From a virus (Duplodnaviria; Caudoviricetes): DNA of 25,544 bases. Within the stretch, counting starts at the first letter, position 1, and the number at the start of each line of letters is the position of its first letter. Positions 6,013-24,685 of the stretch are shown here, piece by piece. The DNA lies in IMG/VR virus record IMGVR_UViG_3300022923_000092, positions 1 to 25,544 of that record. One strand, given 5' to 3'. A program made the position numbers and the translations under genes. Under the pieces are notes generated by a model, which was not told the DNA's origin, searched no databases, and worked only from the letters and a program-made list of their open reading frames with translations.

Positions 6013-6016
6013 ACTC

Positions 6017-6045
6017 TTGCAATAAGTATCGCTTGCGTGTATTTT
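6017..6045 (+). promoter_or_regulatory. Sigma70-like promoter for the major capsid gene
   Basis: TTGCAA (6017-6022), 17-nt spacer, TATTTT (6040-6045). The predicted start near 6051-6052 coincides with the first hairpin of the leader. Confidence 0.6.
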
Positions 6046-6049
6046 AGTC

Positions 6050-6181
6050 TTAACGGCTAACCGCGCACCGGCCCGTTGAATGTAGTATTCTACTGGTTGG
6101 CGCGGCCATAACGCGCAAGCGACCGCCCGAAACCTCGGATAACGGAAGCGTTTTGTTGAAACCTATTAGGAGGTATCTGCA
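6050..6181 (+). promoter_or_regulatory. Structured 5' leader of the major capsid mRNA (candidate cis-regulatory RNA)
   Basis: Four hand-folded stems: 6052-6077, 6082-6093, 6095-6124, 6123-6145. SD AGGAGGT at 6168-6174. Confidence 0.55.
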
Positions 6182-7015
6182 ATGGCGCAGAACGTCACTA
6201 CGGCGTTTGTTGATCTTTTCGACTCTGAGGTCAAACAAGCGTATCAAGCCGAATCGTTGCTTCGCGGCACGATGCGGACACGCACCGGAGTAGCCGGTAA
6301 TACTGTAAAGTTTCCAACAATCGGAAAAGGTGTTGCCACACTTCGCGTTCCACAAACTGATGTCACACCACTGAATGTGACTTATGGTCGAGTAACTGCA
6401 ACGATGGAAGATTACATCGCGGCAGAATATTCAGACATCTTCCAGCAATCGCACATCAACTTTGATGAGCGCTCTGAGTTGGTTCAAGTCGTATCTAAAT
6501 CTATCGCTCGTCGTATGGATCAGATTATGATTGATGCTCTGGACGCGGCCACTGGCACATCTACAGTTGCAACGACTGTTGGCGGTGCTGGCACGAACAT
6601 GAACATCGAAAAGCTACGTGCTACAGCTAAAGCATTGAATGAGAAGAACGTACCCGCCGAGGGTCGCAGACTGCTCATGCACGCTTCTCAGCTCGACGCA
6701 TTGCTTGGCGAAACTGAAATCACCAGCCAGGACTTTGCTGCTGTAAAGGCTCTTGTCCAGGGTGAGATCAATACGTTCATGGGCTTCACCATTTTGACTA
6801 TGGGTGATCGTGATGAGGGTGGTATTCCTAAGCCTTCTACTCGCACCTGTTTTGCTTGGCACCAGGATTCAATGGGCTACGCTGAGTCAATGTCGCAGAA
6901 AACCGAAGTGAATTACGTTCCGGAAAAAACGTCATTCCTGGTTAGCTCGATGTTCTCTGCTGGCGCTATTGCGATCGACGGTGAAGGCATTGTCAAAATT
7001 TCTTGCACTGAATAA
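6182..7015 (+). CDS. Major capsid protein
   Basis: 277 aa after the scaffold, with a perfect SD. 'FDSEVKQAYQ', 'GNTVKFPTIG', 'SIARRMDQIMIDAL', 'VKALVQGEINTFMGF', 'GAIAIDGEGIVKI' are typical of HK97-fold podovirus capsids. Confidence 0.92.
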   Translation: MAQNVTTAFVDLFDSEVKQAYQAESLLRGTMRTRTGVAGNTVKFPTIGKGVATLRVPQTDVTPLNVTYGRVTATMEDYIAAEYSDIFQQSHINFDERSELVQVVSKSIARRMDQIMIDALDAATGTSTVATTVGGAGTNMNIEKLRATAKALNEKNVPAEGRRLLMHASQLDALLGETEITSQDFAAVKALVQGEINTFMGFTILTMGDRDEGGIPKPSTRTCFAWHQDSMGYAESMSQKTEVNYVPEKTSFLVSSMFSAGAIAIDGEGIVKISCTE

Positions 7016-7030
7016 TTAGGAGATTAGACA

Positions 7031-7276
7031 ATGGCATTCGCATCTGCAAACTGGTCAACAGTTGCTGCATCCAAGAGCGGGAACGCTCCAGCGGTGTACA
7101 CTTACATCTCATCAGGTGATAATTTGGCAACTGTTAAAGGCTCAGGTTATTTCAACACAGTTGAATCGCTTATTACAACTGGTGACGCCCTTTGGGTCGT
7201 TGCTAGTGATAGTCAAGCGCTGTGTAAGTTAATCAATACCAGTGGCGTTATAACCGTTACTGATTTGACTACATAA
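7031..7276 (+). CDS. Small capsid-associated (decoration-like) protein
   Basis: 81 aa, beta-rich; SD AGGAG; lies between the capsid gene and the downstream hairpin. Function inferred from position. Confidence 0.6.
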   Translation: MAFASANWSTVAASKSGNAPAVYTYISSGDNLATVKGSGYFNTVESLITTGDALWVVASDSQALCKLINTSGVITVTDLTT

Positions 7277-7283
7277 TAAGGTT

Positions 7284-7301
7284 GGGGGGCTTCGGCTCCC
7301 C
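7284..7301 (+). terminator. GC-rich UUCG hairpin after the capsid genes (leaky terminator or mRNA stabiliser)
   Basis: GGGGGGC-TTCG-GCTCCCC, 7-bp stem with a C(UUCG)G tetraloop. Followed by TTCCCC rather than a U-tract. Position is analogous to T7 Tphi. Confidence 0.6.
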
Positions 7302-7324
7302 TTCCCCACTAACAGGAGGGCAAT

Positions 7325-7942
7325 ATGGCCGCTGGTGATACTTCACTCTCAATCTGTTCAGATGCTCTAATCCTGTTGGGTGCTGCGCCCATTTCTTCGT
7401 TTACAGAGGGAAGCGATGCGGCTCAGGCTTGCGATAGATTATACCCAGATCTGCGCGATACACTTTTATCAAGTTACCTTTGGAGCTGGAGCGTTCAAAA
7501 AGAACAGCTTGCTCGATTGGCGGCTGCTCCAGTAGACGAATGGAAATATGCTTACCAAATGCCAGGCGATATGCTTTCTGGCGTTATAGCGTTGTTTCAA
7601 AGCTCTGGCATAGGACAGCTTCCCGTAAGATATGGATGGGAAGTTTATCAAGATCAGGTCTATACAAATTTTGAGGAAGTCTACATCGATTATCAGGCAA
7701 CAGTAGATGAAAGCAAAATGCCGCCTTACTTTGTTGATCTGCTTACCTATGCGTTAGCTTCTAAGCTGGCCTTCGTTATAACCGATCAAATTTCTAAGGC
7801 TGATTATTTCAGAGCTGAGGCGTATGGCACACCGGCTGATTCTGGTCGTGGTGGCAAAATGCGAGCTGCTATGAATATTGATGGCAGAGGAAAGCCGCCC
7901 CAAGTTATTGAGGACTATTCTTTAATTAGTGTAAGGTACTAA
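7325..7942 (+). CDS. Tail tubular protein A (T7 gp11-like adaptor)
   Basis: 'SICSDALILLGAAPISSF', 'YPDLRDTLLSSYLWSWS', 'WKYAYQMPGD', 'MPPYFVDLLTYALASKLA'; SD AGGAGG. Confidence 0.88.
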   Translation: MAAGDTSLSICSDALILLGAAPISSFTEGSDAAQACDRLYPDLRDTLLSSYLWSWSVQKEQLARLAAAPVDEWKYAYQMPGDMLSGVIALFQSSGIGQLPVRYGWEVYQDQVYTNFEEVYIDYQATVDESKMPPYFVDLLTYALASKLAFVITDQISKADYFRAEAYGTPADSGRGGKMRAAMNIDGRGKPPQVIEDYSLISVRY

Positions 7943-7943
7943 A

Positions 7944-10514
7944 ATGCGGGTAATACAGTTCCAAACCAATTTCTCGGTTGGCGAGCTTGATCCGCTTATT
8001 CGTGCTAGAACGGATCTACAGCAATATCAGAATGCTCTGGAAGAAGCTACGAATGTAATCATTCAGCCTCAAGGCGGGTTTCGTCGCCGTGACGGGCTTC
8101 AGTTTATCTATGACTTTGGTGGTACGTTTACAGATTTTAAAATTATCCCCTTCGAGTTTAGTGTAAACGACAGTTATCTTTTGGTTTTTGTTAATCAAAG
8201 GATTTATGTTTTTAAGGCTGGGGTGTTGCAAACAAACATTAACGCCTCTGGCAACGATTACATTGCGGCCACTGATATTACTGCCGCGATGCTCGATGAG
8301 ATCAATTATACGCAAGCGGTTGATACGCTTATTCTTTGCCATGAGGATCTGCAAACTAAACGCCTGGTGAGAAACAGTGATACCTCTTGGACGTTAGAAA
8401 ACCTACCTCTGACGAATTTGCCTCAGTATGCTTATGCGTTTGATACGCACCAACCAGACTTTACGATTACGCCCAGCGCTACCTCTGGTAATATCACTAT
8501 TACAGCCTCAGCAGCAACGACAGACACAGGAACAGCTCAGGCTGGCGGGGCTGATACAATCACCCTTAAATCTGCATCTAGCTTTACATCTGACGATCAG
8601 CCAAACGGAATGTTTATTACTTTAACATCTGGCACTGGCTCAGGGCAAACGCGCCACGTTGAGGACTATGTTGCTTCTACAAAGGTTCTGACCGTCTATC
8701 CCGCTTGGGATACGGCTCCAGATAATACAACAGGATATAAGGTTGAGCCATTTGCTGCTGCTACTGTTGGTGAATATGCTCAAGTTCTCAGCACTTTTGG
8801 TCGCGCTCGGTATGTGGAGTTTGTTTCTTCCACAGAAATGAAGGCTGTTGTTGAGGTAAACTTCTTTGACACAAGTGCTATTACTGCCGGTAATTGGGAG
8901 AGTGAGCATGGCTATGAAGATGTTTGGTCAAACACTCGCGGGTGGCCTAAGTCTGCTGCATTCCATGAGGGTCGGTTGTATTTTGGTGGGTCTAAGTCCA
9001 GGCAGAATACGATCTGGGGATCTAATGTAATTAACTACTTTGACTTTAATCCTGGCACTGGCCTTGCTGATGAGGCTGTTGAGGCAACTATTAACACAAA
9101 CCAGCTTAACAGTATTGTTAATTTGTTCTCAGGTAATGACTTGCGGATATTCACAACTGGTGGTGAGTTTGCTGTAATACAGACGACCGATGATCCGATT
9201 ACGCCTTCAAGTTTTTTTATAAGGCCGCAAACCAGACTTGGCTCTAAGCCTGGCGTTCCTGTTGAAGATTTAAACGGCGCGTCTGTCTTTATCCAAAGGC
9301 AGGGGAAATCTCTTAATGCGTTTCAATTCGGTGATACTACGGCGTCCTATCAGGTTCAACCTCTCTCAGCTCTTAGCTCTCATTTGTTAAAAGATCCTAT
9401 TGACTTGGCCGCTCGTCGAGCAGCATCTACAGATGAGTCAGATCGATTGTTTGTGGTAAATGGCACAGATGGCTCGATGGCTGTTTACTCTATTCTAGTT
9501 GGCCAGAACGTGATTGCTCCTAGTAGATTTACAACTGACGGTGAGTTTATTGCCGTGGGCGTTGAGGTGTCTGATGTTTACACAATCGTTAAGGCTCCCG
9601 TTATGGATTGGAATACTACAGATGGGCTTTCTGCTGCTATAGATGAGATCGCTGCTGGTACAAAAGACGCATCTGATGGTGGTGTGTATGCCTGGTTGCT
9701 GGAGACTGTTGACTCTTATCCAAGGGCAGATCTTGGTCAGAACGGTGTTGTCGGCACTTTGGATGCTGGGTTTTGGGAGTCATATGGCAACGGCACAGCG
9801 ACAATAACTATTGATGCAAATGGTGACGTTACTCTGATTAGAATTGTTTATGGGTCTCCACCAATTACTCTTAGCTTTACGGATGTAACAAGTAATAACT
9901 ACATCTACGCGAGGATATTATCTTTTGTCCAAGCGTTTTGGGAAGCGCATGATGCCGGTGAGTCATGGGTAAGTAGCTACATTACAAACACCTATCATCT
10001 GCAAAAGTTTAATCCAGACATCACTTTAGACAGGGCTGTATCTGGTGGTGCTGCTGGAGAAGTTACTAGCACTGGTCTTAGAGATAGGGTTGTTAAGATA
10101 ATCCGAGATGGCGTGATTGATGGCACTAAGGTTGCGAGCCATGATGGACGTGTGGACTTTGCTACTGCCTCTACAACATCCTTCGTTGCTGGTCTTGATT
10201 ATACGGTAACAGCTAAAACTATGCCAGCCGAGCCGACTCTATCCTCTGGATCTGTTCAAGGGTTTAAAAAGAGAATTATCCAAGTTGATGCAATCGTCAA
10301 TGGAACTCAGAACATGACGATCAACGGCAAGCAAGTTCCGTTTAGAAACCTTGGTGAAAATGTTTTAGATAAACCTGTTGATCCATTTACCGGCACTAAG
10401 ACCGTTCACGGCTTGCTGGGGTATAGTGGTACTGGACAAATAACCGTAAGCCAGAATGTGCCATTAGCAATGACTGTTCTGGGCTTAGAATATCGTTTGA
10501 GTGTGGGGAATTAA
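7944..10514 (+). CDS. Tail tubular protein B (T7 gp12-like nozzle) with inserted modules
   Basis: 'QTNFSVGELDP', 'NVIIQPQGGFRRRDG', 'GWPKSAAFHEGRLYFGG', 'LRIFTTGGEF', C-terminal 'GQITVSQNVPLAMTVLGL'; follows tubular A. Confidence 0.88.
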   Translation: MRVIQFQTNFSVGELDPLIRARTDLQQYQNALEEATNVIIQPQGGFRRRDGLQFIYDFGGTFTDFKIIPFEFSVNDSYLLVFVNQRIYVFKAGVLQTNINASGNDYIAATDITAAMLDEINYTQAVDTLILCHEDLQTKRLVRNSDTSWTLENLPLTNLPQYAYAFDTHQPDFTITPSATSGNITITASAATTDTGTAQAGGADTITLKSASSFTSDDQPNGMFITLTSGTGSGQTRHVEDYVASTKVLTVYPAWDTAPDNTTGYKVEPFAAATVGEYAQVLSTFGRARYVEFVSSTEMKAVVEVNFFDTSAITAGNWESEHGYEDVWSNTRGWPKSAAFHEGRLYFGGSKSRQNTIWGSNVINYFDFNPGTGLADEAVEATINTNQLNSIVNLFSGNDLRIFTTGGEFAVIQTTDDPITPSSFFIRPQTRLGSKPGVPVEDLNGASVFIQRQGKSLNAFQFGDTTASYQVQPLSALSSHLLKDPIDLAARRAASTDESDRLFVVNGTDGSMAVYSILVGQNVIAPSRFTTDGEFIAVGVEVSDVYTIVKAPVMDWNTTDGLSAAIDEIAAGTKDASDGGVYAWLLETVDSYPRADLGQNGVVGTLDAGFWESYGNGTATITIDANGDVTLIRIVYGSPPITLSFTDVTSNNYIYARILSFVQAFWEAHDAGESWVSSYITNTYHLQKFNPDITLDRAVSGGAAGEVTSTGLRDRVVKIIRDGVIDGTKVASHDGRVDFATASTTSFVAGLDYTVTAKTMPAEPTLSSGSVQGFKKRIIQVDAIVNGTQNMTINGKQVPFRNLGENVLDKPVDPFTGTKTVHGLLGYSGTGQITVSQNVPLAMTVLGLEYRLSVGN

Positions 10515-10515
10515 G

Positions 10516-10950
10516 ATGAGTCAATTAGCATTTGCTGCTGTTTCTGCTGCGGGTCAAATAGCTGCTGGTGCAGCACAGCGCAGGCAGTATGAAGCACAAG
10601 CCAGGCAAGCAGAGCTTCGCGGCAGATCTGAGGCTCTTGCGTATAAGCAAAAAGGCGTTGATGCTTTGCGAAATCTTAATGAAACGCTTGCGGCTATTAT
10701 TTCTCGATCTGCTGCTGGTGGTGTTGATCCTACATCTGGCTCTGCCTCAACATTACAAAAGTTTGCTTTGTCAGAGGGCGCTAGGGAAAAGGCTATTGCT
10801 CAAGACAATGCTCTTATGGCTCTCGGCCAGGCAAGCACTCAGGCAGGCATTTATCAATCTGCCGGTCGAGCCGCACAATTAAACTCTTATGTTTCTGCTG
10901 CTGGTACACTTGGCACAGGTTCGTATAGAGCTGGACAATTAACAGGTTAA
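10516..10950 (+). CDS. Internal virion (ejection) protein, T7 gp14-like
   Basis: Ala/Gly/Gln-rich; 'AAGGVDPTSGSA' motif; first gene after tubular B. ATG 10516 preferred over GTG 10501. Confidence 0.75.
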   Translation: MSQLAFAAVSAAGQIAAGAAQRRQYEAQARQAELRGRSEALAYKQKGVDALRNLNETLAAIISRSAAGGVDPTSGSASTLQKFALSEGAREKAIAQDNALMALGQASTQAGIYQSAGRAAQLNSYVSAAGTLGTGSYRAGQLTG

Positions 10951-10953
10951 GAC

Positions 10954-13497
10954 ATGGCTATTCTTCCAAGATATCAGCGCATCGGTTTACAAACCCGCCG
11001 ACCTCAGCAGTTGGACTTTGCCGCTACGCGGGAACAAGCCAGGCTTGGGCAGAATATTTCTCAGCAAGTAGATCGTATGGCTGACTTCGCCTTCAAGCAG
11101 GCGGCTGAGGGCGCAGCAATCCGAGGACAGGAGCGCGTTAGGGAAGAGGGCGCTCGCCCTACTCTTGCGGCAATAGAGGCGGCGGGTGGGCCTACTACAA
11201 TAGCAGAGCGTTCAGCGTATGCCCTGGGTAGTCGCGTGGCTGTTGCGGAAATACAGAATGAAGCTGAAATCGAGATAATGCGGATCTTGAATGATGCTGA
11301 AACAAATGAGACACCGTTTAGCACTGTCCAGGCACAGCTTGCCGATATTACAGATGGATACTCTGCATCACTAGATACAATCGATCCAGAGGCGGCATTG
11401 ATGCTGCAAACCAGGTTATCCTCTGCATCTATCAAAGCAGAAGAAAGATATTCAAATTATTATGTAAAGTTACAAGCATCAAAAGCTAAGGCAAAAGTAA
11501 ATAGCGCCGCTGATGTCCAGCTCGATCGTGTTGTCGGTAATGCAATATTGCCTGGTTATAACGCAGAAAGAATAAGAAGCGACATTGATGAAAGTTTTGA
11601 TTTGCTGGCCGGTCTGGGTGCTGATGATGCAACTCTTACCGCCTTTAAAGAGCAGGCATTTAATGCTGCTATAAAAGAAAACACAATTTATAAGTTCAAT
11701 ACATCGGATCTCGATACCCAGGCTGAGATGCTGACTAGCATGGAGACAAAGCCGGTTGCTGGGATGTCTTTGGAACAAACGCAATCTCTGCGCAAATCAT
11801 TGCGAGCTGACTACAATTCTAAATTACAGGTTACTAAAGGCGAGGCCGCGGCTGTTATCTCTGACGTTAATGAGCAAAACCGTATATTAGCATTGGGCGG
11901 CATGCCTTCGCAGAAAGAAGTATTAACACTAAAAGAGAGAGCTGACGCTGCCGGTGATTATGGTGCGGGCGCAAGGGATGCTGTCGGACGCTTGCAGTTC
12001 AACATGGAATTTGCTGCTGCATTCCGCAAGATGACGCCACAAAATCTAGCTGCTGAGGTGCAGGCTCTAAGGCAAGGTCTTGAAGGTATCGGCGAGGCTG
12101 GCATTGATACGCTCATAGAAGCTGAAATATTAAAGGTTGCACAGGCGCATCTAACTGCCGCTGAAGCCGGTGTGGAAAAAGCTCAAACAGCTCGCAAAGC
12201 AGAGTTTAAGCCTATTGTTGATAACCTGGCGAATGAAATTGCAGACTTCCAAAAGATAGTTGATTCCGGTCGCGCTGTGGAAAGTGGAGATATTGCAAAG
12301 TTAATTGAAGCTGTCAGCAATGTTCCAGAAGATCTAAGGCAAGATCTTACTGAGGATGTTATGGCATTAAACATAACAAGTGCTACTGCTGAGGCTGTAG
12401 GCAATATGACGCCAGCCGAAGCTGCTGGATACATTAGATCCCTCGGAGCGGGCATTGAGGGCATTGGCGATGCTGGATTAGATACTCCGGTCGAGATAGA
12501 AACATACGATCTTGCGAAGAAAATGCTTTCCGGCATGGAGGCAGAATTAAAAAAAGATCCTCTGGGATATGCCATGCTCGTTGGCCTTACAGATGCAAAT
12601 GGCAATGCTATTGAAATCACACCGATTAACTTTACAGATCAAGATGCAACAATAGAAACTATGAAAAAACGCATCAATGATGCGACTATTGTTTCTTCTA
12701 AGTATTCAACGCCAGTAACATATTTCACGCCGCAAGAAAAATCTATGCTGGCTGAAGTTATGTCTGAAGCCGATCGCTCTCAGCGCATGTTCTTTCTAGG
12801 TGCTATTGTTGAAGGTGGCGGCCAAGCGGCTCCTGATATGTTGGCTGAAATATCCAATACTGCTCCAGAGTTTGCCGGTATTGGTGCGCTGGTTGTAAAC
12901 GAAAGAATGGATGCGGCAAATAAAGCTTTGCGCGGTATGGATTTAATCAAAAAAGGATTAAAGTTAGTAGAATTTACACCATCAAATACCGAGATTCCAT
13001 TTAAGGCAAAGACTGATGAGGCTTTACGTTATCAGCCAAACGCCATTGGCATTACCCGTGAGGTTGCTAAAGCAATTTATGCAGATATAGCTGGAAGGGA
13101 AGAACAATTTAATGAGGGTCTTTGGAATCACGCCATAGATCTTGCCCTTGGCGCTGATGGAGCTGGCAATGGCGGCATTCAAGAAGTTCGCAACGCAAAC
13201 ACATTTGTACCGCCAAACCTAAGTTCTGATGATATTGAGGCAGCACTCAAAGCAATGACACCAGAGAACATATCTTTTGCATCTAATGGCCAGGTTATAA
13301 GCGAAGAATATGCAGAAGATATTTCTGGTCGTGGAATGTTTGTTCGTGACGATAATTACAAAGTAATATCATATGGTGGAAATAACTTTATCTTGGCATA
13401 TGGAGACCCCACTATAAGTCAGCCTATATATGTTTTTGACAAAGCTGGTGATTTGTTAATATTTGACATGCAAAAGTTAGTTGAGGCCACTCAATGA
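10954..13497 (+). CDS. Internal virion (ejection) protein, large and helical
   Basis: 847 aa, 'MAILPRYQ' start, all-alpha composition, gp15-like position, internal repeat with 125-aa spacing. Confidence 0.7.
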   Translation: MAILPRYQRIGLQTRRPQQLDFAATREQARLGQNISQQVDRMADFAFKQAAEGAAIRGQERVREEGARPTLAAIEAAGGPTTIAERSAYALGSRVAVAEIQNEAEIEIMRILNDAETNETPFSTVQAQLADITDGYSASLDTIDPEAALMLQTRLSSASIKAEERYSNYYVKLQASKAKAKVNSAADVQLDRVVGNAILPGYNAERIRSDIDESFDLLAGLGADDATLTAFKEQAFNAAIKENTIYKFNTSDLDTQAEMLTSMETKPVAGMSLEQTQSLRKSLRADYNSKLQVTKGEAAAVISDVNEQNRILALGGMPSQKEVLTLKERADAAGDYGAGARDAVGRLQFNMEFAAAFRKMTPQNLAAEVQALRQGLEGIGEAGIDTLIEAEILKVAQAHLTAAEAGVEKAQTARKAEFKPIVDNLANEIADFQKIVDSGRAVESGDIAKLIEAVSNVPEDLRQDLTEDVMALNITSATAEAVGNMTPAEAAGYIRSLGAGIEGIGDAGLDTPVEIETYDLAKKMLSGMEAELKKDPLGYAMLVGLTDANGNAIEITPINFTDQDATIETMKKRINDATIVSSKYSTPVTYFTPQEKSMLAEVMSEADRSQRMFFLGAIVEGGGQAAPDMLAEISNTAPEFAGIGALVVNERMDAANKALRGMDLIKKGLKLVEFTPSNTEIPFKAKTDEALRYQPNAIGITREVAKAIYADIAGREEQFNEGLWNHAIDLALGADGAGNGGIQEVRNANTFVPPNLSSDDIEAALKAMTPENISFASNGQVISEEYAEDISGRGMFVRDDNYKVISYGGNNFILAYGDPTISQPIYVFDKAGDLLIFDMQKLVEATQ

Positions 13498-16400
13498 ACT
13501 TTGACCAGCCCGATCCGCTAGACATCCTGCCCCAGCAAGGTTTGCAAGCGCCACCTGGTACGCTTGTGGAAAATCTTACAACTGCGTTTGATGTTGCTCG
13601 CTTCAACGGTGGGTCTGGTGCAAACAGCAAAGCATTTACTATGCTGGAGGTCTGGGGGCCGATCGTAGACCTAGCCAATCAAAACGGCGGTGACTTTGAA
13701 AACCCTGGCATATATCTCAGCAGCAGCTTGTTTGATACAAGCGCTCCTCGCGTTTATGAGCGGCAAACCCAAGAGCTTTATTCCTGGCTGGCACAGAACA
13801 AAGATTCACTGCCGCCAGAGCTACAAGATATAACGCCTGATGTAATCGATCAGCGCACTAAAGACTTTGTGCAATCTAAGCAGAATGAATTAGCAGAGCT
13901 TGCAAGAACAAATCCTGATCTGGCTAGTGCATCTGCTCGTTTTATTGGCTCTATGGGTTCGGCGTTTGGTGATCCGGTAACGCAAGCCACAATGCCGTTT
14001 GGTGGCTGGTCTAAATCATTCTGGAAGAACGTAATGCAGAGCGCTGCTATAAATGCTGGCGTTGGTGCGATTACTGAGGTTGATGTTGCCAAGTGGTATG
14101 ATGAGCTTGATCTGGAATACAGCTATCAAGACTTTCTGGCAAATGTAGCTATTCAAGGCGCATTCGGTGCAGCATTGCCTGTTGCTGGTCGCGGTATAAG
14201 AATGACTGCGGAGCAAGCAAAGAAAGGTTGGGAAGTATTATCTGGTAAAGGCCGCAAGCCTGTTAGCCCAGAGGATCAAGCCTTGGTTGATGTCCTAGAA
14301 GCACAAGAGGAAGTGGTTGCCACTAATCCGCTAGAAACGCCGCAAGATCCTAATGTGGCAGAGTTTGAGCATCAGAGCCGCTTAACTGCCGCACAGGCAG
14401 CGATAGAGAACAATCAAGCGCCTAAGATAACACCAGAGCCAAACGCGCCTATAAAGCCTTCTGTAGCAGCGCAAGCAGCAGATAATCTTGACGGTGTTCT
14501 GTACACTTTAGATCCAGATATAATTGAGGTTGATGCCAAGACGTTTCAGTTTAAATCTGGCGGTGATGAGTTTGGCGTAACAGAAAGGCTGCAAGGTGTA
14601 ACAACCTGGGATAAATACAAAGCTGGTGTTGTAACGGTGTATGAATATGCCGATGGCCGCTTGGCTATTGCTGATGGCCACCAGCGTCTAGGTCTAGCAA
14701 AGCGCATTCGATCGCAAGATCCTTCTCAGGATGTAAAGGTTATCGGGTATAAGCTGCGTGAGGTTGACGGGATTAGCCCAGAAGAGGCGCGTGTTATTGC
14801 TGCAATGAAGAATATTGCAGAAGGCACTGGCACATCTATTGATGCCGCTAAGGTGTTGCGGGTTGAGCCTGATAGATTGTCAGAGCTGCCGCCACGTTCT
14901 GAGCTAGTTCGCCAGGCTAGAGATATGATGGCTTTAAGCGATGAGGCATTTGGTGCTGTTGTTAATGAGGTGATACCGGCAAACTATGGCGCTATCGTTG
15001 GTAGATTGATTGATGATCCTAAGCTGCAAGATGCTGCTATCCAGGTCTTAGCTAAGTCTGAGCCTAGTAATGCCTTCCAAGCGGAATCAATCGTGCGCCA
15101 GGTGCGTGAGGCTGGAGCTGAAGAGGTAGAGCAAATATCTCTATTCGGTGAAGAGCTGGTAACTGAAAGCTATTATGTAGAACGTGCAAAGATCTTAGAT
15201 CGAGCATATAAAGAACTGCGCCGTGACAAAGCAGCATTTGAAACATTGGTTCGTAACTCGGAACGCCTGGAAGCAGAAGGCAATATCTTAGTTAAGGAAG
15301 CAAATGAAAGAAAGGCAAATACAGATGGCCAAACGATCGCGCTCCTCCAAACGCTTGCAAACAGAAAAGGGCCGCTCTCCGATGCCCTCAACCAAGCAGC
15401 AAGAACAGCCAGAGACACAAACAGCTATGTCGAAGCAACCAGAGGTTTCCTCGATGCTGTCAGAGGATCAATTGAATCGGGCGACTTCGACCGCATATCT
15501 TCTGGCGACATTGGACGCGCTGTCGATGGTGCGCCGCAGATCGCTCGATCTGAAATTGAAAAAGAACCAGCCCTTGAGGGCTTCGACGAGCCAACGGGGA
15601 TAGCAGCAGAACGTCAAGCCGATCAGCTAATTGATGATATGTTTGGCTCTGACGAGGTGGATGCTGACTCTATTGCTGGCCTCAAACGGTTGCTTGATGA
15701 AAGCCCGACCAGAGATCAGATAGACAATCATCCATCTGTAATTAAAGCGCTAGATGAAATGGAAGCTCGCGCAGAGACTTCTGGCATAGAAGGCTATAAT
15801 ACAGAAGCCTGGCATAACTCTCGCGTTTATAAAATAGATGACCAGGATGTTACCTCAACAGCAGAGGCAATGGTTCGGTTCGAGCGTGATGCAGAGCAGT
15901 TAGCATTTAAAGAGCTAGGTATAGATCCACAGCCTGTTCTTAGAAATAAAGAGCTTACTATAGTTTTAGGCCCACCGGCTGCTGGTAAAAGCACAATCGC
16001 CAATGAATTAGCCATTGCAAACAGATCTGCTATCCTAGACAGCGATGAGATTAAAAAGGCATTGCCAGAGTATGAGGGTGGTATTGGTGCATCAGCGGTA
16101 CATGAGGAGAGTTCTGACCTGGCAAAGATCTTACAATCCTTGATGATTGAGCAAGGAACTAATATCGTTTTGCCAAAAGTGGGCCACACTGCCTCTAGTA
16201 TCCGCAAAGCAATATCACTATATAAAGATAAGGGGTATAAGGTTCGTCTTGTAAATATGGATGTTACCCCAGAAAACGCATATCAACGTATGATTGGGCG
16301 TTTCGTATCTTCTGGCAGAATTATTCCACCGGCATATCTTGATGCTGTTGGGGCTAATCCATCTGCCACATTTAGAACATTAAGACAGGAGGGCGCAGCC

Positions 16401-16784
16401 GATGGCTATGCAGAAATCGACAACAATGGCGGCTTCAATGACCCCAAAGAAATCAGAGAAGTCTCAGGAGACAACCCGTTATCAGGATCTAGCTTCGATG
16501 TACCTTCGGGTGGACGAACAGAACCAGACGCTATCAGAGTCGCAGAGCGCGATAGTGCAACGTATTCTCTCGAAAAAACGCAGCCTACCCCAGACGGAGG
16601 AATAGCTGACGATATAAATACATCTGACATCTTTGATGACATGGATCTTGAGGTTCCTCTTGGTGAGCGCCTAGATCCTGACACTAATGAAGTTGTGCCA
16701 ACAACTATGACGCTTAGAGATGTTAAGGCTCAAATGGATCAGGAAGATGCAATGATAGCCCGATTGGAGTTCTGTACAATATGA
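13494..16784 (+). CDS. Polyvalent internal virion protein: ejection-type N-terminus + ParB/Srx-like domain + zeta-toxin-like P-loop kinase
   Basis: Gly/Ala-rich hydrophobic helices in the N-terminal part. 'AIADGHQRLGLA' (DGHQR at 14673-14687). 'IVLGPPAAGKST' (GPPAAGKS at 15969-15992), 'ILDSDEIKK', 'HEES', 'NIVLPKVG', 'AYQRMIGRF..SGRIIP'. ATGA overlaps on both sides. Confidence 0.75.
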   Translation: MNFDQPDPLDILPQQGLQAPPGTLVENLTTAFDVARFNGGSGANSKAFTMLEVWGPIVDLANQNGGDFENPGIYLSSSLFDTSAPRVYERQTQELYSWLAQNKDSLPPELQDITPDVIDQRTKDFVQSKQNELAELARTNPDLASASARFIGSMGSAFGDPVTQATMPFGGWSKSFWKNVMQSAAINAGVGAITEVDVAKWYDELDLEYSYQDFLANVAIQGAFGAALPVAGRGIRMTAEQAKKGWEVLSGKGRKPVSPEDQALVDVLEAQEEVVATNPLETPQDPNVAEFEHQSRLTAAQAAIENNQAPKITPEPNAPIKPSVAAQAADNLDGVLYTLDPDIIEVDAKTFQFKSGGDEFGVTERLQGVTTWDKYKAGVVTVYEYADGRLAIADGHQRLGLAKRIRSQDPSQDVKVIGYKLREVDGISPEEARVIAAMKNIAEGTGTSIDAAKVLRVEPDRLSELPPRSELVRQARDMMALSDEAFGAVVNEVIPANYGAIVGRLIDDPKLQDAAIQVLAKSEPSNAFQAESIVRQVREAGAEEVEQISLFGEELVTESYYVERAKILDRAYKELRRDKAAFETLVRNSERLEAEGNILVKEANERKANTDGQTIALLQTLANRKGPLSDALNQAARTARDTNSYVEATRGFLDAVRGSIESGDFDRISSGDIGRAVDGAPQIARSEIEKEPALEGFDEPTGIAAERQADQLIDDMFGSDEVDADSIAGLKRLLDESPTRDQIDNHPSVIKALDEMEARAETSGIEGYNTEAWHNSRVYKIDDQDVTSTAEAMVRFERDAEQLAFKELGIDPQPVLRNKELTIVLGPPAAGKSTIANELAIANRSAILDSDEIKKALPEYEGGIGASAVHEESSDLAKILQSLMIEQGTNIVLPKVGHTASSIRKAISLYKDKGYKVRLVNMDVTPENAYQRMIGRFVSSGRIIPPAYLDAVGANPSATFRTLRQEGAADGYAEIDNNGGFNDPKEIREVSGDNPLSGSSFDVPSGGRTEPDAIRVAERDSATYSLEKTQPTPDGGIADDINTSDIFDDMDLEVPLGERLDPDTNEVVPTTMTLRDVKAQMDQEDAMIARLEFCTI
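15304..15603 (+). CDS. Nested +1-frame ORF A (99 aa) inside the polyvalent gene, after the ParB-like region
   Basis: SD TAAGGA 15293-15298, 5 nt before the ATG; alternative ATG 15325 with GAAAGG. Host-frame codons shift locally to CTC/GTC/TTC. Confidence 0.5.
   Translation: MKERQIQMAKRSRSSKRLQTEKGRSPMPSTKQQEQPETQTAMSKQPEVSSMLSEDQLNRATSTAYLLATLDALSMVRRRSLDLKLKKNQPLRASTSQRG
16402..16605 (+). CDS. Nested +1-frame ORF B (67 aa) inside the polyvalent gene, at the end of the zeta-like domain; candidate antitoxin
   Basis: Perfect SD AGGAGG 16387-16392, 9 nt before ATG 16402. The host frame becomes a low-complexity linker with C-ending codons. Confidence 0.55.
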   Translation: MAMQKSTTMAASMTPKKSEKSQETTRYQDLASMYLRVDEQNQTLSESQSAIVQRILSKKRSLPQTEE

Positions 16785-19264
16785 CTTTTAAAAACTGTAT
16801 TGATGAGGGCGTTGCTGAAGGGCAGATCACTGAGGATCAAGCCAAAGAGATCAAAGGTCTGTTTGATGAGCTGGAAACAAAATATAACCGGCAAATGGGT
16901 GGTGCTGCTGCAACAGCAAAAGCTGCGGCTGATACATCTATCTCTGCAAAAAAGATTGCTATACAGCGAAAGCGCCGCGCTATGCTCCAGGCCACAACCT
17001 GGAAGAAGATTAATTATGACTTATCAAATTACAAAACAGCTCTAGGCGCACCTGACAAAAACAAGGCAGCTTTAGCATTATATGAAGAAGATCGAAATTC
17101 AAAATTCAGAAGTATTACTCAGGTGCAAAAGGCTGTAACGCGCAGCGCAACAAGAAAGATGGATGAGTTCTTAGCAACTTTTCGTCGTAATCTTGTTGGA
17201 GAAACAAGAAACAAAGCCCAGCTTAAAAATGTAGTTCGTGAGATCTTTGGTGAAGAAACTGGCGATGCTTCTGCTAGAGAAATGGCACAAGCATGGAAGG
17301 CTGCATCAGAATATCTGCGCACAAGGTTTAATGCTGCCGGTGGCGCTATCTCCAAACGTCTTGATTGGGGTATGCCTCAGATCCACGATAGTATGAGCGT
17401 TCTTAAAGCGGGATACGCAGAGTGGCGGGATTTTATTGCGCCGCGCTTAGACTTAAATAAAATGAAAGATGAGCAAACAGGGTTGCCTTTTTCGGAACAA
17501 AAACTTGAGTTTGCTTTGCGTGATGCTTATGAGGCAATTAGCACTGATGGTTTTAATAAACTAAAACCTGGCGCAATGTCGGGAAACAAATCATTTGCTT
17601 TACGTCAGCAAGATCATCGTTTTTTTGTTTTTAAAAATGCAGATAACTGGATGGAATACCAGCAAAAGTTTGGTAATCCAAATGCGTTTGATGCAATGAT
17701 GGGCCATATTGATATGATGTCACGCGACATTGCTATGATGGAGGTGCTTGGCCCTAATCCAGCGGCAACAACAAATTTTATTAAACAAACTTTGGATAAA
17801 GAAGCCAGGACAACGCCAAAAGACCAACGTGAAAGAGCAATAAATAGAGCAAGAAAAGCTGGAAATACTATTGATGCACTTTATAGCGCGATTACTGGAT
17901 CTATAAATGCTCCGGTTGACAGCGTTATAGCAAGTACTTTTGTCGGCCTTCGTCAAATGCTAACTTCAGCGCAACTTGGGGGAGCTTTTATTGCTGCTAG
18001 TTCAGATATAAATTTTGGCCGAATTGCTAGATCTATGGTTGGCTTGCCGCAAACCAAAATGCTGAAAAAATATTTGGATTTTATTAATCCTCTTGGACTG
18101 GAGGAAAAAAGCAAACTTGCAATTCGATTAGGATTGACCGCCGAGGGCTGGTCAACCATTGCTGCGGCTCAAATGCGATATGTCGGAGATGTATCTGGGC
18201 CAGAGATAACGCGCCGTATGGCTGACTTTGTTATGAGGGCCTCTTTGCTTTCCCCCTGGACGAATGCGGGTCGGTGGTCTTTTGGCATGGAGTTCTTAGG
18301 AAACCTAGCTGACAACGCTGGCAAGACATTTAAGCAGCTTGATCCCATGATGCAGAAAACGCTAGATCATTATGGCATTGGCGCTGACAAGTGGGAGATT
18401 GTTAGAACAACCCCGCTCTATGAATATGAGGGCGCTTCGTTTTTAAGAGCTGAGGACATCGAGGCCCGTACAGATATACGCTCAGATTTAGCCCGTGACT
18501 TAGCAACTAATCTCTTGGCTATGGTGGAGACAGAAACAAACTTTGCTGTACCTAGCTCGTCTCTCCGTGGCCGTGTTGCATTAACTGGTGATGCTAAACC
18601 TGGAACGCTCGGTGGTGAGTTAACTAGATCGTTTGCCATGTATAAAAACTTTGGTGTTACTCTTGTCACTACGCATATGATGCGGGGTTTGGCACAACCA
18701 ACACTGAGAGCTAAAGGCACTTACTTAGCAGATATGGTGATTAGCACTACACTAATGGGCGCTATGGCGATGCAGCTAAAGGAAATGGCCAAAGGCCGAG
18801 ATCCTCGCCCAATGACAGATCCAGAGTTTTGGGGCGCTGCGATGCTTCAAGGCGGTGGCCTTACTATATTTGGAGACTTTTTATTTTCAGACGTAAACCG
18901 TTATGGCGGTGGCTTGTCTGAAACTGTTGCGGGGCCGGTGGTCGGATTTATTGGAGATCTAAATAGTTTGACAACTGGAAATATTTTGCAAACTCTTAAC
19001 GGTGAGGATGCAAATTTTGCAAGTGAGGCAATCAGCTTTGCCGGTCGTTATACTCCAGGCTCTACGCTCTGGTATTCTCGCCTGGCATTAGAAAGAATGG
19101 TTCTGGATCAAGGAAAGCTATGGGCAGATCCAGATGCCAGAAGCAAAATGCGCCGGTTAGAATCTAAATATAGGCGTGAATATGGGCAAAACTTTTGGTG
19201 GCGTCCTGGCAAGGTTGCTCCAGAAAGGCAGCCCGATGTTTCAAACGTGTTTGAGCAAAGATGA
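16781..19264 (+). CDS. Internal virion (ejection) protein, last before the tail fibre
   Basis: 827 aa, 'WGMPQIHD', 'DHRFFVFKNADNWMEYQQKFG', C-terminal Gly-rich hydrophobic helices ('AAMLQGGGLTIFGDFL'). BPP-1/epsilon15-type position. Confidence 0.75.
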   Translation: MTFKNCIDEGVAEGQITEDQAKEIKGLFDELETKYNRQMGGAAATAKAAADTSISAKKIAIQRKRRAMLQATTWKKINYDLSNYKTALGAPDKNKAALALYEEDRNSKFRSITQVQKAVTRSATRKMDEFLATFRRNLVGETRNKAQLKNVVREIFGEETGDASAREMAQAWKAASEYLRTRFNAAGGAISKRLDWGMPQIHDSMSVLKAGYAEWRDFIAPRLDLNKMKDEQTGLPFSEQKLEFALRDAYEAISTDGFNKLKPGAMSGNKSFALRQQDHRFFVFKNADNWMEYQQKFGNPNAFDAMMGHIDMMSRDIAMMEVLGPNPAATTNFIKQTLDKEARTTPKDQRERAINRARKAGNTIDALYSAITGSINAPVDSVIASTFVGLRQMLTSAQLGGAFIAASSDINFGRIARSMVGLPQTKMLKKYLDFINPLGLEEKSKLAIRLGLTAEGWSTIAAAQMRYVGDVSGPEITRRMADFVMRASLLSPWTNAGRWSFGMEFLGNLADNAGKTFKQLDPMMQKTLDHYGIGADKWEIVRTTPLYEYEGASFLRAEDIEARTDIRSDLARDLATNLLAMVETETNFAVPSSSLRGRVALTGDAKPGTLGGELTRSFAMYKNFGVTLVTTHMMRGLAQPTLRAKGTYLADMVISTTLMGAMAMQLKEMAKGRDPRPMTDPEFWGAAMLQGGGLTIFGDFLFSDVNRYGGGLSETVAGPVVGFIGDLNSLTTGNILQTLNGEDANFASEAISFAGRYTPGSTLWYSRLALERMVLDQGKLWADPDARSKMRRLESKYRREYGQNFWWRPGKVAPERQPDVSNVFEQR

Positions 19265-19304: not shown

Positions 19305-22172
19305 ATGGCTGACATTCCAATAAATCCGGTTACACGCCGAGTTGAGTTCACAGGTAATACTGGAACTGGCCCATTCGCGTTTACCTTCAACGTGCTTGCT
19401 CAGGCAGATGTTGCTGTTTACAAGAACAACACCTTGCTTGCTCTTACGAGCGATTACACAGTGTCACTAAACTCAAACGGCACTGGATCAATAACACTTG
19501 TATCTGCGCTAATTGCTACGGATGATCTGGTGATTATCGGTGACTTGCCATTATCCAGAACAACGGACTTTGTGACTGCTGGTGACTTGCTTGCTTCCTC
19601 TTTGAATGAGCAGTTTGACAGCAATGTTGTTATGTCTCAGCAGCTCGATGAAAGATTCGATCGGACTATTCGCTCTCAGCCAGGCGATATAAACAAGAAT
19701 CTTTATCTGCCTTTAGTTGATGACCGTGTTAGCCAGCTTCTTAGCTTTGATAGCTCAGGTAATATTACAACTACAAACCTGTCTAATGTTCCTGATATTG
19801 GAACAGTAAACTTAACTGTTAGCGGCCTTGCATCATTTGCTGATGGATCTTTGGGTGCGCCAAGCATTACAAATATTGGCGATACAAATACCGGCATATA
19901 TTTTCCCGCAGCCGATCAGCTCGCGTTTACTGCTGGTGGGAATAATATATTTAGCATAACGTCAACCTATGGGCTAATGAGTAAGCCTTTATATTTTAGT
20001 GATGGTATTCTTCTTACGGATAATTCAGCAACAGCCTTAACAATCAAAGAGGGTTCTAATAATTATTTAACCTTTATTACAACGAACGGATCTGAAAAGC
20101 TTTCGTTTGGTAAGCCTATTGATGTTACTGGTGCGATTACGACTAACACAAGTCTTAACATTGCCAGCAGCACTACGGTTGATGGGATCTTAGACGAAGA
20201 TGATATGTCATCTAACAGCGCTACTAAGCTGGCGACGCAGCAGTCTATTAAGGCTTATGTGGATGCGCAAGTTGGTACGGTTGATACGCTTGCTGAGGTT
20301 CTTGGCAATGGCAACACGACTGGTGGTACAGATATTGCGGTATCATCTGGTGATGACATTACGTTTGCAGATAACAGCAAAGCCATCTTTGGCGCAGGGT
20401 CTGACCTACAGATTTACCATGATTCGGCAGACAATTCATCCAGACTAATAGAAAGTGGCACTGGAAACTTTTTTATTGGTGGAGATAATATTTATTTAAC
20501 TAACTCTGGAATATCTGAGTTCTATTTAAGAGCAGTAGAAAATGCAGGAGTTACATTATACTATGATAACTTACAAAAGTTAAACACCAGCAGCACAGGC
20601 GTAGACATCACGGGTACTTTGACCAGCGATGGGCTGACTGTGGATGGGGCTGTAGACTTTTCAACAGGCACAGGATCAAATGTTGTCTTAGGTAATACAG
20701 GCAGTTTCACTGGTTCAGAAACAGCACAACTTGTTTTTGAAGAAGGTTCTACAGAACTTGCCCAAGTACAATGGAACCCTAGTGGAAATACTTTTGTACT
20801 AGAAAACAAAATCTACAATGCACCAATTTCGTTTAGAACCTTTGGGGCAACCGAACGATTAAAAATAGATGGTGCTACAGGCGACATCAGCTTTTACGAG
20901 GACACTGGCAGCACGGCAAAGTTCTTCTGGGATGCGAGTAAAGAAAGTGTTGGAATAGGAACAACTTCTCTTACGCCTACTGATGGGGCAAATATAGAGT
21001 TAAGTTCTGCAACAAGTTCAAGAATTATTCTTGATAGCACAGGAACAGGTGGACGAAAGTACACTATGGCTTCTGGCACAAACGGGAGTTTGGATTTTTA
21101 CGATTATGATGCTGCGGCTTATCGCATGCGCATTGACAGCAGCGGACGGGTTGGCATTGGGACGAGTTCGCCTAGTGGTAGCTTATCCGCTGGGGGTCTT
21201 CATGTAACTGACCGTATAGCAGTTGGTTCTGGTAGTACTGGCACACCAGCCTTGCATTATGATGCAGATACAGACACAGGTATTTTCTTTGGTACAGGCG
21301 TTGTGGGTGTATCTACTGGCGGCTCAGAACGCATGCGCATCGACAGCAGCGGTAACTTGCTGGTGGGTAAGACGAGTGCGGCTTACAATACTGATGGTTT
21401 TGAGACACATCCAAACGGAGAAACCTATGTAAGCCGTAGCGGAACGCCTATGGCAATTAACCGCAATTCGTCTTATGGAACGCTTTTAAACTTTTACAAA
21501 GACGGCGGCGGTGTGGGGAGTATTGGGACTGATAGCAATGGTGACTTTGTTATAGATGGAAGTGCTAATCATTCAGGATTGCGTTTCAAAGATAATACCG
21601 TTGTACCAAAGCAAAATGGCTCTGATGCAGACAATGCAATAGATTTAGGTAAGTCCGATAAGCGCTGGAAAGACCTCTACCTCTCTGGCGGTGTCTACCT
21701 TGGCGGGGTAACGTCGTCTAATCTGCTAAATGACTATGAGGAGGGGATTTTTACTCCACAAATTGCAGATGCTATAAGTGGGGGAAACTCAACTACAACA
21801 GGTAACACTATTGCTGGCCATTACGTTAAAGTTGGCTATATAGTTCACGTTAGCATTAGGATAATTTTTCCAAATACTTCAGGTCTTACATCTGGAAATG
21901 TTTTGTATATTAGAAACTTGCCTTTTACCTGTTACAATGCAAGCGGCGGTTTCCCTCTTGCAGTAGGTACAGCCAGAAATATTAACTACAGCCATGACAT
22001 GATTACAGCTCAAGTTTCGCCAAATAGTACTTATCTTAACCTTGAAAGCTGTAGGGCTGCCTCGTTATCTTCACCCTTAGCTGAGGAAGAACTTACTTGC
22101 GGTCAGTTTTCAGGGGATGGAACCTCAGGTTCACCTGTCCTTTATTTAGGCGGCACATATAGAACAACCTAA
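19305..22172 (+). CDS. Tail fibre protein (T7 gp17-like N-terminal anchor, mosaic shaft)
   Basis: N-terminus 'FTGNTGTGPFAFTFNVL...DYTVSL...RTTDF..GDLLASSLNEQFD..V.MSQQL'. Repeated 'RMRIDSSG' and 'DTGI.F' shaft motifs. C-terminal domain begins 'LNDYEEGIFTP'. Confidence 0.9.
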   Translation: MADIPINPVTRRVEFTGNTGTGPFAFTFNVLAQADVAVYKNNTLLALTSDYTVSLNSNGTGSITLVSALIATDDLVIIGDLPLSRTTDFVTAGDLLASSLNEQFDSNVVMSQQLDERFDRTIRSQPGDINKNLYLPLVDDRVSQLLSFDSSGNITTTNLSNVPDIGTVNLTVSGLASFADGSLGAPSITNIGDTNTGIYFPAADQLAFTAGGNNIFSITSTYGLMSKPLYFSDGILLTDNSATALTIKEGSNNYLTFITTNGSEKLSFGKPIDVTGAITTNTSLNIASSTTVDGILDEDDMSSNSATKLATQQSIKAYVDAQVGTVDTLAEVLGNGNTTGGTDIAVSSGDDITFADNSKAIFGAGSDLQIYHDSADNSSRLIESGTGNFFIGGDNIYLTNSGISEFYLRAVENAGVTLYYDNLQKLNTSSTGVDITGTLTSDGLTVDGAVDFSTGTGSNVVLGNTGSFTGSETAQLVFEEGSTELAQVQWNPSGNTFVLENKIYNAPISFRTFGATERLKIDGATGDISFYEDTGSTAKFFWDASKESVGIGTTSLTPTDGANIELSSATSSRIILDSTGTGGRKYTMASGTNGSLDFYDYDAAAYRMRIDSSGRVGIGTSSPSGSLSAGGLHVTDRIAVGSGSTGTPALHYDADTDTGIFFGTGVVGVSTGGSERMRIDSSGNLLVGKTSAAYNTDGFETHPNGETYVSRSGTPMAINRNSSYGTLLNFYKDGGGVGSIGTDSNGDFVIDGSANHSGLRFKDNTVVPKQNGSDADNAIDLGKSDKRWKDLYLSGGVYLGGVTSSNLLNDYEEGIFTPQIADAISGGNSTTTGNTIAGHYVKVGYIVHVSIRIIFPNTSGLTSGNVLYIRNLPFTCYNASGGFPLAVGTARNINYSHDMITAQVSPNSTYLNLESCRAASLSSPLAEEELTCGQFSGDGTSGSPVLYLGGTYRTT
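21123..21352 (+). repeat. 23-bp direct repeat pair within the tail fibre (21123-21145 and 21330-21352)
   Basis: CGCATGCGCATTGACAGCAGCGG versus CGCATGCGCATCGACAGCAGCGG, 22/23 identical; both encode RMRIDSSG. Confidence 0.9.
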
Positions 22173-24299: not shown

Positions 24300-24685
24300 T
24301 ACAAGCGTTTATAGGCCCGATTGCAAACCTTGCTGGAAGCTGGTTGCAGGGCAAGGCTGATAAGAATGCAGCAGAAGCCAAGCTAAAGTTGACTGAGGCA
24401 GAGGCTAAAGCTAAGATAATGCTCAGTGAAAAAACAAGCGTTGCCGATTGGGAGCGCATCATGGCTGAGGGTTCGCAGAATAGCTTTAAAGACGAGTGGC
24501 TTGTTGGCTTGTTTTCTGTGCCCTTGGTGCTTTCATTCTGCGGGGAATGGGGGCGCACAACCGTTGCAGAGGGGTTCACAGCGCTGGAATCTATGCCTGA
24601 CTGGTATCAATATACTTTGGGCGTTATTGTTGCTGCGAGCTTTGGTGTTCGATCTGCCACTAAATTCTTTGGGAGAACAAAATGA
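24296..24685 (+). CDS. Holin-like membrane protein (resembles 3TM/GTA-type holins)
   Basis: ATGA overlap at 24296. 'SFKDEWLVGLFSVPLVLSF', 'MPDWYQYTLGVIVAASFGVRS..KF'; directly upstream of the endolysin. Confidence 0.7.
   Translation: MIQAFIGPIANLAGSWLQGKADKNAAEAKLKLTEAEAKAKIMLSEKTSVADWERIMAEGSQNSFKDEWLVGLFSVPLVLSFCGEWGRTTVAEGFTALESMPDWYQYTLGVIVAASFGVRSATKFFGRTK

Follow-up and report, generated by a model that had tools for sequence, protein, structure and literature searches.

Two small genes lie inside one large gene of IMGVR_UViG_3300022923_000092, an IMG/VR virus record from a tailed phage (Caudoviricetes) of 25,544 bases, which was analyzed at its full length and is referred to here as the window. 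The large gene (the host gene, with its host protein and host frame) encodes a multidomain, or 'polyvalent', virion protein of 1096 amino acids (aa), one domain of which is a kinase of the zeta-toxin type. The two nested open reading frames (ORFs), ORF A and ORF B, are both in the +1 frame relative to it. Each has a conserved ATG and ribosome-binding site (RBS), synonymous change in the host frame is constrained exactly over each of them, selection acts specifically on the +1 frame, and ORF B co-occurs with the zeta kinase. From these patterns we infer translation of both ORFs and, for the ORF B product, binding to the kinase, its inhibition and exclusion from the virion. Both +1 genes are kept by purifying selection in related phages, and we tentatively propose that the product of ORF B binds and likely inhibits the zeta module and is left behind at packaging.

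Comparative evidence that ORF A is an overlapping gene

ORF A spans host aa 611-703. In the preliminary description, made from the window sequence, it was taken to start at ATG 15304, 5 nucleotides (nt) behind the Shine-Dalgarno (SD) sequence TAAGGA. The ORF is confirmed, and its start has to be moved. In the comparison with twelve related contigs (nucleotide identity over the gene 100-61%), three of 13 close sequences have ATG 15304, and all 13 have ATG 15325, seven codons downstream in the same frame. The latter start is also kept in 23/23 contigs and in 62 of the 63 distinct sequences of a deeper scan, with an SD-like 4-mer in 57 of the 62 that have it. Its RBS in the window, GAAAGG, also precedes window genes 5242 and 22806.

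The +1 frame is open and ends at the same stop in all 13 close sequences and in 23/23 contigs, and nt 15320-15600 are nearly invariant, even in the contig with 61% identity. When the window is compared with a more distant group, host aa 331-600 are 86-87% identical at the protein level and 73-75% at the DNA level; in the ORF A region the protein is 82-84% identical and the DNA 87-88%. The proportion of synonymous differences in the host frame (pS, Nei-Gojobori counts) is 0.10-0.37 over ORF A versus 0.46-0.82 in both flanks, and the proportion of nonsynonymous differences (pN) is unchanged. Synonymous change in the host is thus about 4-fold lower exactly across ORF A, in a trough from approximately aa 605 to approximately aa 690-705, whereas amino-acid change is not lower. 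Read in its own frame, ORF A has an apparent ratio of nonsynonymous to synonymous change (omega) of 0.49-0.66; two control regions elsewhere in the host gene have 0.94-2.46.

The deeper scan was seeded on two motifs of the host protein about 250 codons upstream and was blind to ORF A. The best 80 of 188 relatives were taken, of which 75 cover the region; 63 of these are distinct, with host identity down to 53%. Not one of the 63 has a +1 stop over host aa ~618-686, and a single stop event falls in the preceding bin, whereas flanking bins of 10 columns have 4-69 events each and the +2 frame inside ORF A has 7-60. The ORF A profile matches the +1 frame only, at 76 of the 80 loci, the four misses being loci that end before the region. 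In one relative (L089) a stop stands immediately before the ORF A ATG, and the open stretch begins at that codon. All 11 deeper pairs show the synonymous constraint, with host pS of 0.37-0.53 inside ORF A versus 0.69-0.91 outside (p 1.4e-4 to 5e-11) and host pN higher inside than outside. The profile also matched 12 called proteins in public assemblies (47-75% identity) and one chimera. On this comparison of sequences, we conclude that ORF A is a real overlapping gene and not a chance frame.

Comparative evidence that ORF B is an overlapping gene

ORF B starts with an ATG located at the D-G codons of ADGYAEIDNNG, a host motif. Its RBS has ACAGGAGGGC, the same sequence as at the RBS of window gene 7325. 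In the first sets of sequences, 12/12 contigs that carry a zeta module keep ORF B. These include L002, which is identical to the window, and also three contigs whose backbone is only 54% identical in the N-terminal third. A separate zeta scan, seeded on kinase motifs, gave 80 loci. Of these, 33 good matches (L119-L150 and L154; 31 distinct) were analyzed, and 47 weaker or partial matches were left out of the ORF B counts. The ORF B ATG and an open frame of 58-76 codons are found in 27 of the 31 distinct zeta modules, with purine-rich, SD-like runs before nearly all 27 distinct starts. In two loci (L125 and L126), a +1 stop stands one codon before the ATG.

The 27 modules occur in at least four types of host protein: the window family, giant proteins with an HExxH stretch, one protein running into a methylase-like part, and proteins like that of Dunaliella viridis virus SI2 (DvV-SI2). 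Co-inheritance of ORF B with the zeta module across different host proteins is therefore supported and fits a 'cassette'.

In the kinase, host pS is 0.5-0.9; at aa 985-1019 it is down to 0.00-0.16, and from approximately aa 1020 it climbs back. The first ~12 codons of ORF B are without synonymous constraint. Over ORF B, the fraction of columns that vary drops from 0.72 to 0.26 at host position 3, whereas it stays at 0.25-0.30 at position 1. Between two backbones, the +1 frame of ORF B has an omega of 0.35-0.42 and 80% aa identity, and the host frame over the same stretch an omega of 0.85-1.19 and 70-72% identity. Same-frame controls for ORF A and ORF B give apparent omega values of 0.94-3.85. 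The closest pair, window and L007, is uninformative (+1 omega 1.26). A profile search of called proteins returned only two close matches to ORF B. We conclude from the comparative data that ORF B, too, is a real overlapping gene rather than a chance frame.

The nested frames in the window sequence

Several features of the two ORFs can be read directly in the window, as the preliminary description had reported. Both frames are present inside 13494..16784 in the ORF list and its translations, with ORF A at 15304..15603 in its longer form and ORF B at 16402..16605, and the SD sequences have the reported spacings (TAAGGA, 5 nt; AGGAGG, 9 nt). Both end in a TAG built by a host Gly-Ile(ATA)-Ala context. 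The reported switch of host codons from T-ending to C-ending forms is likewise real: the fractions of C and T at host third positions are 0.16 and 0.35 over aa 1-610, 0.35 and 0.19 over ORF A, and 0.32 and 0.21 over ORF B.

The case that can be made from this single sequence is nevertheless weak. The window holds about 15 same-strand nested ORFs of at least 60 aa. Given the host protein and the codon usage of the window, an open +1 frame has a probability of 0.0086 at ORF A and of 0.23 at ORF B. Chance frames are ruled out by the comparative data and not by ORF length or the single sequence. The expected conservation of SD, ATG and open frame was found for ORF A (62/63 with the ATG, 57/62 with an SD-like sequence) and for ORF B (27/31), and host synonymous variation is lowered over both ORFs, short of significance for ORF B in four of ten diverged pairs.

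Frameshifting and nucleic-acid constraint

An open +1 frame could also be entered by programmed ribosomal frameshifting, which would yield truncated versions of the virion protein that carry other C-termini. Two database proteins, P0010 for ORF A and P0019 for ORF B, do run from the host frame into the +1 frame, and SD-like sequences can stimulate +1 shifts. However, +1 stops stand directly before the ATG of ORF A in L089 and one codon before that of ORF B in L125 and L126, the start codons are kept in 62/63 and 27/31 distinct sequences together with RBS-like motifs, and the N-terminal residues of ORF A are conserved from the Met onward. Moreover, a further database protein, P0006, begins at the ATG although its sequence is almost the same as the tail of P0010. 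The junctions in P0010 and P0019 may be indels, assembly errors or natural variants, and we consider frameshifting improbable.

Lowered synonymous change could in principle reflect constraint on the nucleic acid itself, by an RNA structure, an internal promoter or recombinational homogenization at module borders. ORF A does lie directly upstream of a swapped module (see below), and short synonymous troughs without an open alternative frame occur near the ends of other modules. Such constraint does not account for the absence of +1 stops beside many stops in the +2 frame, nor for an effect on host position 3 that spares position 1. Homogenization would need a lowered pN, which is not seen. Fold z-scores are -0.03 and +1.0, no Rfam match was found at E<=1, and other phages have the ORF B core in frame at the start of an unoverlapped gene. 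This explanation is highly improbable in our judgment.

Products of ORF A and ORF B

The AlphaFold2 model of the ORF A product contains one long helix (residues 47-81), a block with predicted local distance difference test (pLDDT) values of 92-98, and residues 1-45 are of low confidence. The N-terminal half is basic (M.KRSRSSK...), and its residues are conserved from the Met onward. Searching the ORF A profile against PDB sequences gave nothing meaningful. We predict a basic-tailed, single-helix protein that would serve the core of the family as a partner, a chaperone or a nucleic-acid binder.

Distant matches to ORF A are weak. Among 266 frames, the profile from the deep set matched a +1 ORF of DvV-SI2 over nearly its whole length with an E-value of 1.9e-5, and Ruegeria phage 45A6 with an E-value of 0.0025; the first, shallower profile matched neither phage. 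In DvV-SI2 (L118, HQ332136), this ORF lies at 4097-4393 inside DVVG_00008, and the published annotation shows no nested gene. In P0016, a protein from a 621-base contig of a public assembly, the first 26 residues are identical to the ORF A helix and are followed by the flagellar rod C-terminal domain PF06429; this short contig is probably chimeric.

The ORF B product is modeled as a loose N-terminus followed by two helices, at residues 20-39 and 46-61. Four of the 31 zeta modules (L138, L139, L142 and L143) do not keep the overlap. In these loci an ACG replaces the ORF B ATG, no SD sequence is present, and the zeta protein stops 37 codons past the anchor. The next gene begins right behind the zeta stop; in the full contig L204 the distance is one base. 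This post-zeta gene begins with MKENIVAMYHRVENEDMRLTDPIAIAMVQRILAKQR..., which matches the ORF B core DLASMYLRVDEQ..SAIVQRILSKKR. With a profile built from close sequences only, hmmsearch gives the leader E-values of 1.5e-7 to 1.4e-6, and a genome search of each record finds it with E-values of 1.7e-8 to 6.6e-6, one match per record. The ORF B peptide opens the next gene in these four phages and would thus be translated there without overlap, which lends indirect support to a protein product of ORF B.

The leader always stands right behind zeta, although the protein that it opens varies: it is a DGNHR/ParB-like protein in L138 and a protein bearing an ADP-ribosyltransferase (ART) domain in L139, L142 and L143. 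The head module of these phages is different as well, and comprises portal, two multidomain proteins, protease and capsid. The ORF B core makes up the first ~45 residues of a 994-aa post-zeta protein in G003 and three relatives; this protein ends in an ART domain (PF03496, E 6e-14). The full contig (L204) shows the arrangement of the two adjoining proteins: the first has a phrog_8314 domain and zeta, and the second has the ORF B-like leader, a phrog_8314 domain and the C-terminal ART domain. Directly after the ORF B core comes DAQARAPKGSPIGGQW, which recurs between modules of both adjoining proteins. The motif [DE][AE]QARAPKG[ST]xIGGQW, which recurs between modules of the leader-bearing protein, may be a processing site.

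This arrangement bears on a second account of the overlapping genes, in which they are real and ORF B, perhaps also ORF A, is an assembly or packaging adaptor that would direct the effector protein to the procapsid and would serve as the cleavable N-terminal leader of a packaged effector in protease-bearing phages. The position of the ORF B core at the head of the 994-aa protein, followed by DAQARAPKGSPIGGQW, would suit such a role, as would the build of both small proteins, disordered N-terminally and helical C-terminally. On the other hand, the leader-like peptide occurs once per record and always right behind zeta, whatever protein comes next, and the leader of the zeta protein itself does not match the ORF B-like peptide. 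Pfam and PHROG scans found no head protease in the window. We consider the adaptor account rather unlikely.

Swapped C-terminal modules

Between ORF A and the conserved tail at the C-terminus of the host protein lies a segment (window 15650-16610) that is swapped among at least four module types, as observed in the window and in loci L011, L012, L013, L017, L022, L024, L025 and L033. The types are the zeta kinase, a module with a RelA/SpoT-like lead, a module without a family, and a long form in L017 with an extra part carrying a DGN motif. The three non-zeta types have no Pfam family; the RelA/SpoT-like lead comes from clusters with PF04607 on 34% and 17% of their members (score 0.95). Nested ORFs in these modules, among them those at aa 907-984 of L012, aa 970-1050 of L011 and aa 961-1057 of L024, were rejected as chance frames (pS 0.4-0.8). 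Short troughs in pS (0.08-0.24) were observed at host aa ~1051-1080 of L012 and ~1070-1110 of L011, around a shared IIDDTSD.NLDIT, with no alternative frame open at either; these may mark a recombination junction.

It had been suggested that each enzymatic module travels with its own small inhibitor. Because the non-zeta modules are without a constrained nested ORF, a nested antidote is not a general need of the host-protein family, and the suggestion does not hold in general. As a domain-linked cassette, ORF B stands, following zeta across architectures, and ORF A does not. It is open and homologous in 75/75 covering loci whichever C-terminal module they carry. Given this presence regardless of the module that follows, ORF A is part of the conserved core of the family and not a swappable effector.

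The universality of ORF A, regardless of the C-terminal module, could also mean that the overprinted genes are real and their products independent of the host domains, with, for example, early or late accessory or anti-defence functions, the linkers merely tolerating a second frame. Overprinted viral genes are typically accessory and disordered, according to the parts of two papers drawn on here (PMC8227390, PMC3494269), and both ORFs overlap weakly constrained host segments, in which pN is higher inside than outside. However, ORF B stays with zeta in at least four unrelated host contexts and is absent with other modules, and its position after zeta is kept even where the overlap is lost. Independence from the host domains is thus unlikely in our view.

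Proposed role of the nested genes

We hypothesize that the ORF B product is a small helical binder of the zeta module that likely holds the kinase inactive inside the producing cell. It would stay behind while the large protein is packaged and then ejected. Its mode of action would resemble that of epsilon/PezA or of the AvrRxo1 partner, although it lies outside those families. An antidote role for ORF B is plausible. A broader version of this proposal appears doubtful to us; in it, an antitoxin is encoded inside the coding sequence of its own toxin and moves with it as a portable block that could be inserted in frame into any virion-injected multidomain protein, and in protease-bearing phages it is the cleavable leader of the next packaged effector, with the toxin armed only inside the capsid.

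Several observations weigh against the proposed antidote role. In further ORF B pairs, synonymous constraint is significant in 6/10 and lost in 4/10, the latter being the most diverged. The model of the ORF B product is moderately confident (mean pLDDT 65.9), the product has no Pfam or PHROG family, and its profile shows no likeness to epsilon or PezA among PDB sequences, where the best match (E 0.17) is an unrelated DUF507 protein. The fusion of the ORF B core to the next packaged effector in four phages fits a targeting or assembly leader equally well. None of the three non-zeta modules, including the one with the RelA/SpoT-like lead, carries a nested ORF under synonymous constraint. Packaging and ejection of the host protein are read solely from the position of its gene, and toxicity late in infection may be of little matter in a lytic phage.

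Relation to known systems

Lambda Rz1 is embedded in Rz in the +1 frame and is a lipoprotein spanin. ORF A and ORF B resemble it in being small genes with their own start and RBS that are fully contained in a larger gene, in the +1 frame of the same strand, and are co-conserved with it. Embedded and separated forms of Rz/Rz1 vary between phages, as they do for ORF B. In contrast to Rz1, ORF A and ORF B lie in a virion effector gene and not in a lysis cassette, and their products have neither a Cys nor a lipobox.

Zeta toxins are normally restrained by a small helical antitoxin. As in the epsilon/zeta and PezA/PezT pairs, a P-loop kinase of the zeta family is here genetically tied to a small helical protein, but ORF B is embedded in the coding sequence of the kinase and downstream of it, instead of preceding it as a gene of its own. 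Its sequence shows no similarity to either antitoxin, and the kinase belongs to a larger, 1096-aa virion protein as one of the domains. In polymorphic toxin systems (contact-dependent inhibition, Rhs and MuF-toxins), toxins and immunity proteins form cassettes. The host-protein family similarly swaps its variable C-terminal toxin module, and a small cognate gene with it, while the flanks stay conserved; it differs in that the small gene lies inside the frame of the toxin itself, that the exchange is in frame, and that one of the four module types carries such a gene.

AvrRxo1 of Xanthomonas, as described in the parts of the sources drawn on here, is a zeta-like effector with an antitoxin or chaperone (Arc1; Xe4429) (PMC4938570; bioRxiv 10.1101/2023.12.02.569727). 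There, too, a zeta-like kinase is delivered to another cell and a small cognate protein guards or chaperones it in the producer, but delivery is by bacterial type III secretion and not by phage ejection, and the partner gene is separate and not overprinted. Polyvalent proteins of phages and conjugative elements are multidomain proteins for which packaging and injection have been proposed (Iyer et al. 2017, PMC5512222). Judged by the passages of that paper drawn on here, the host protein resembles them in being encoded among virion genes, with a securely identified zeta domain and a ParB-like part as a lead, and in its relatives zeta is combined with parts that are peptidase-like, methylase-like or ART domains. 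Those passages make no mention of small nested genes; in them 'overlapping' occurs 0 times and 'zeta' once. Our literature search found no paper that combines a zeta toxin, an internal virion protein and a phage, and none on such nested genes among the matches listed.

Standard gene callers forbid nested genes, and both protein families are therefore invisible in annotation, even though all 75 related contigs from marine phages have ORF A, and ORF B accompanies most of the zeta modules found in virion proteins. If ORF B inhibits the kinase, the two would form a toxin-antitoxin pair on shared nucleotides. This would explain how phages make and package a zeta-type toxin domain without harm, and how such modules are swapped in frame. 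With one peptide nested in one lineage but free of overlap in another, the case is also a clean natural example in which to study how an overlap arises.

Host protein and genomic neighborhood

Within the host protein, the zeta-like kinase named in the preliminary description is borne out by a match to PF06414 (aa 818-979, E 2.2e-18). It aligns with PezT (2p5t, E 0.001) and zeta (1gvn, E 0.0028), the matched parts including the P-loop and a D-x-D stretch; GPPAAGKST and LDSDE of the host kinase align to both PezT and zeta. We take the catalytic residues to lie within this aligned P-loop and Asp stretch. Host aa 286-706 are covered by phrog_10691 (E 3e-67). The ParB-like region of the preliminary description was not recovered by Pfam or PDB sequence searches, and the lead (host aa ~335-600) comes from a language model only, the nearest named Atlas clusters carrying PF02195 ParB_N with a score of 0.95.

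In agreement with the preliminary description, which saw no free-standing partner gene beside the kinase, Pfam and PHROG scans of the window proteins found no known antitoxin family, no epsilon/PezA-like gene, and no small free-standing partner gene with a known family.

The structural block of the window is T7-like, and the features are listed in Table 1. The host gene sits between the genes for internal virion proteins and the fibre, and its position among core-protein genes suggests that the host protein is packaged and ejected. The phage is uncultured and known from metagenome contigs; by portal, the nearest cultured phage is Methylophilales phage MEP301 (63% identity). The DNA of the host gene has no match among cultured phages, and a protein search gave only partial, distant matches.

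Table 1. Features of the window and of one related contig, with their coordinates
Feature	Coordinates	Strand	Remarks
Host gene, 1096-aa multidomain ('polyvalent') virion protein	13494..16784	+	sits among internal-core genes
Conserved N-terminal/central core, ParB-like lead	14496..15299	+	host aa 335-602, motif DGHQR; kept in 80 loci
ORF A	15325..15603	+	conserved form, 92 aa, +1 frame; 15304 start also possible in window (15304..15603, 99 aa)
ORF A RBS GAAAGG	15310..15315	+	9 nt upstream of conserved ATG
ORF A core, one long helix	15463..15567	+	residues 47-81, motif LS[DE][DE]Q[LF]..A......LAMLDALSM[ILV][RQ][RK][KR]
Zeta-toxin-like kinase domain	15945..16430	+	host aa 818-979, PF06414
ORF B	16402..16605	+	67 aa, +1 frame; overlaps end of zeta domain and linker behind it
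ORF B Shine-Dalgarno AGGAGG	16387..16392	+	9 nt upstream of ATG
ORF B core, predicted helix-loop-helix	16459..16584	+	residues 20-39, 46-61; homologous to leader of post-zeta gene in four phages
Conserved C-terminal tail (DMDLEVP...RLEFCTI)	16611..16781	+	common to all module types; right border of swapped module
Large terminase	392-1927		structural block
Portal	3433-4995		PF12236
Scaffold	5242-6012
Major capsid protein	6182-7015
Tail tube A, tail tube B	7325-7942, 7944-10514
Internal virion protein	10501-10950		phrog_418
847-aa protein			between phrog_418 protein and host gene
phrog_684 virion protein	16781-19264
Fibre	19305-22172
Two adjoining multidomain proteins	L204 (G003) 5688-10752		between portal and protease genes

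Other same-strand nested ORFs of 81-129 aa lie in the scaffold gene (5324-5713, +), the internal-protein gene (10568-10882, +), the phrog_684 gene (16800-17045, +) and the fibre gene (20200-20448, +). Behind the fibre gene, a run of small genes of unknown function ends with an endolysin gene at window 24682-25194 (phrog_465, E 2e-46).

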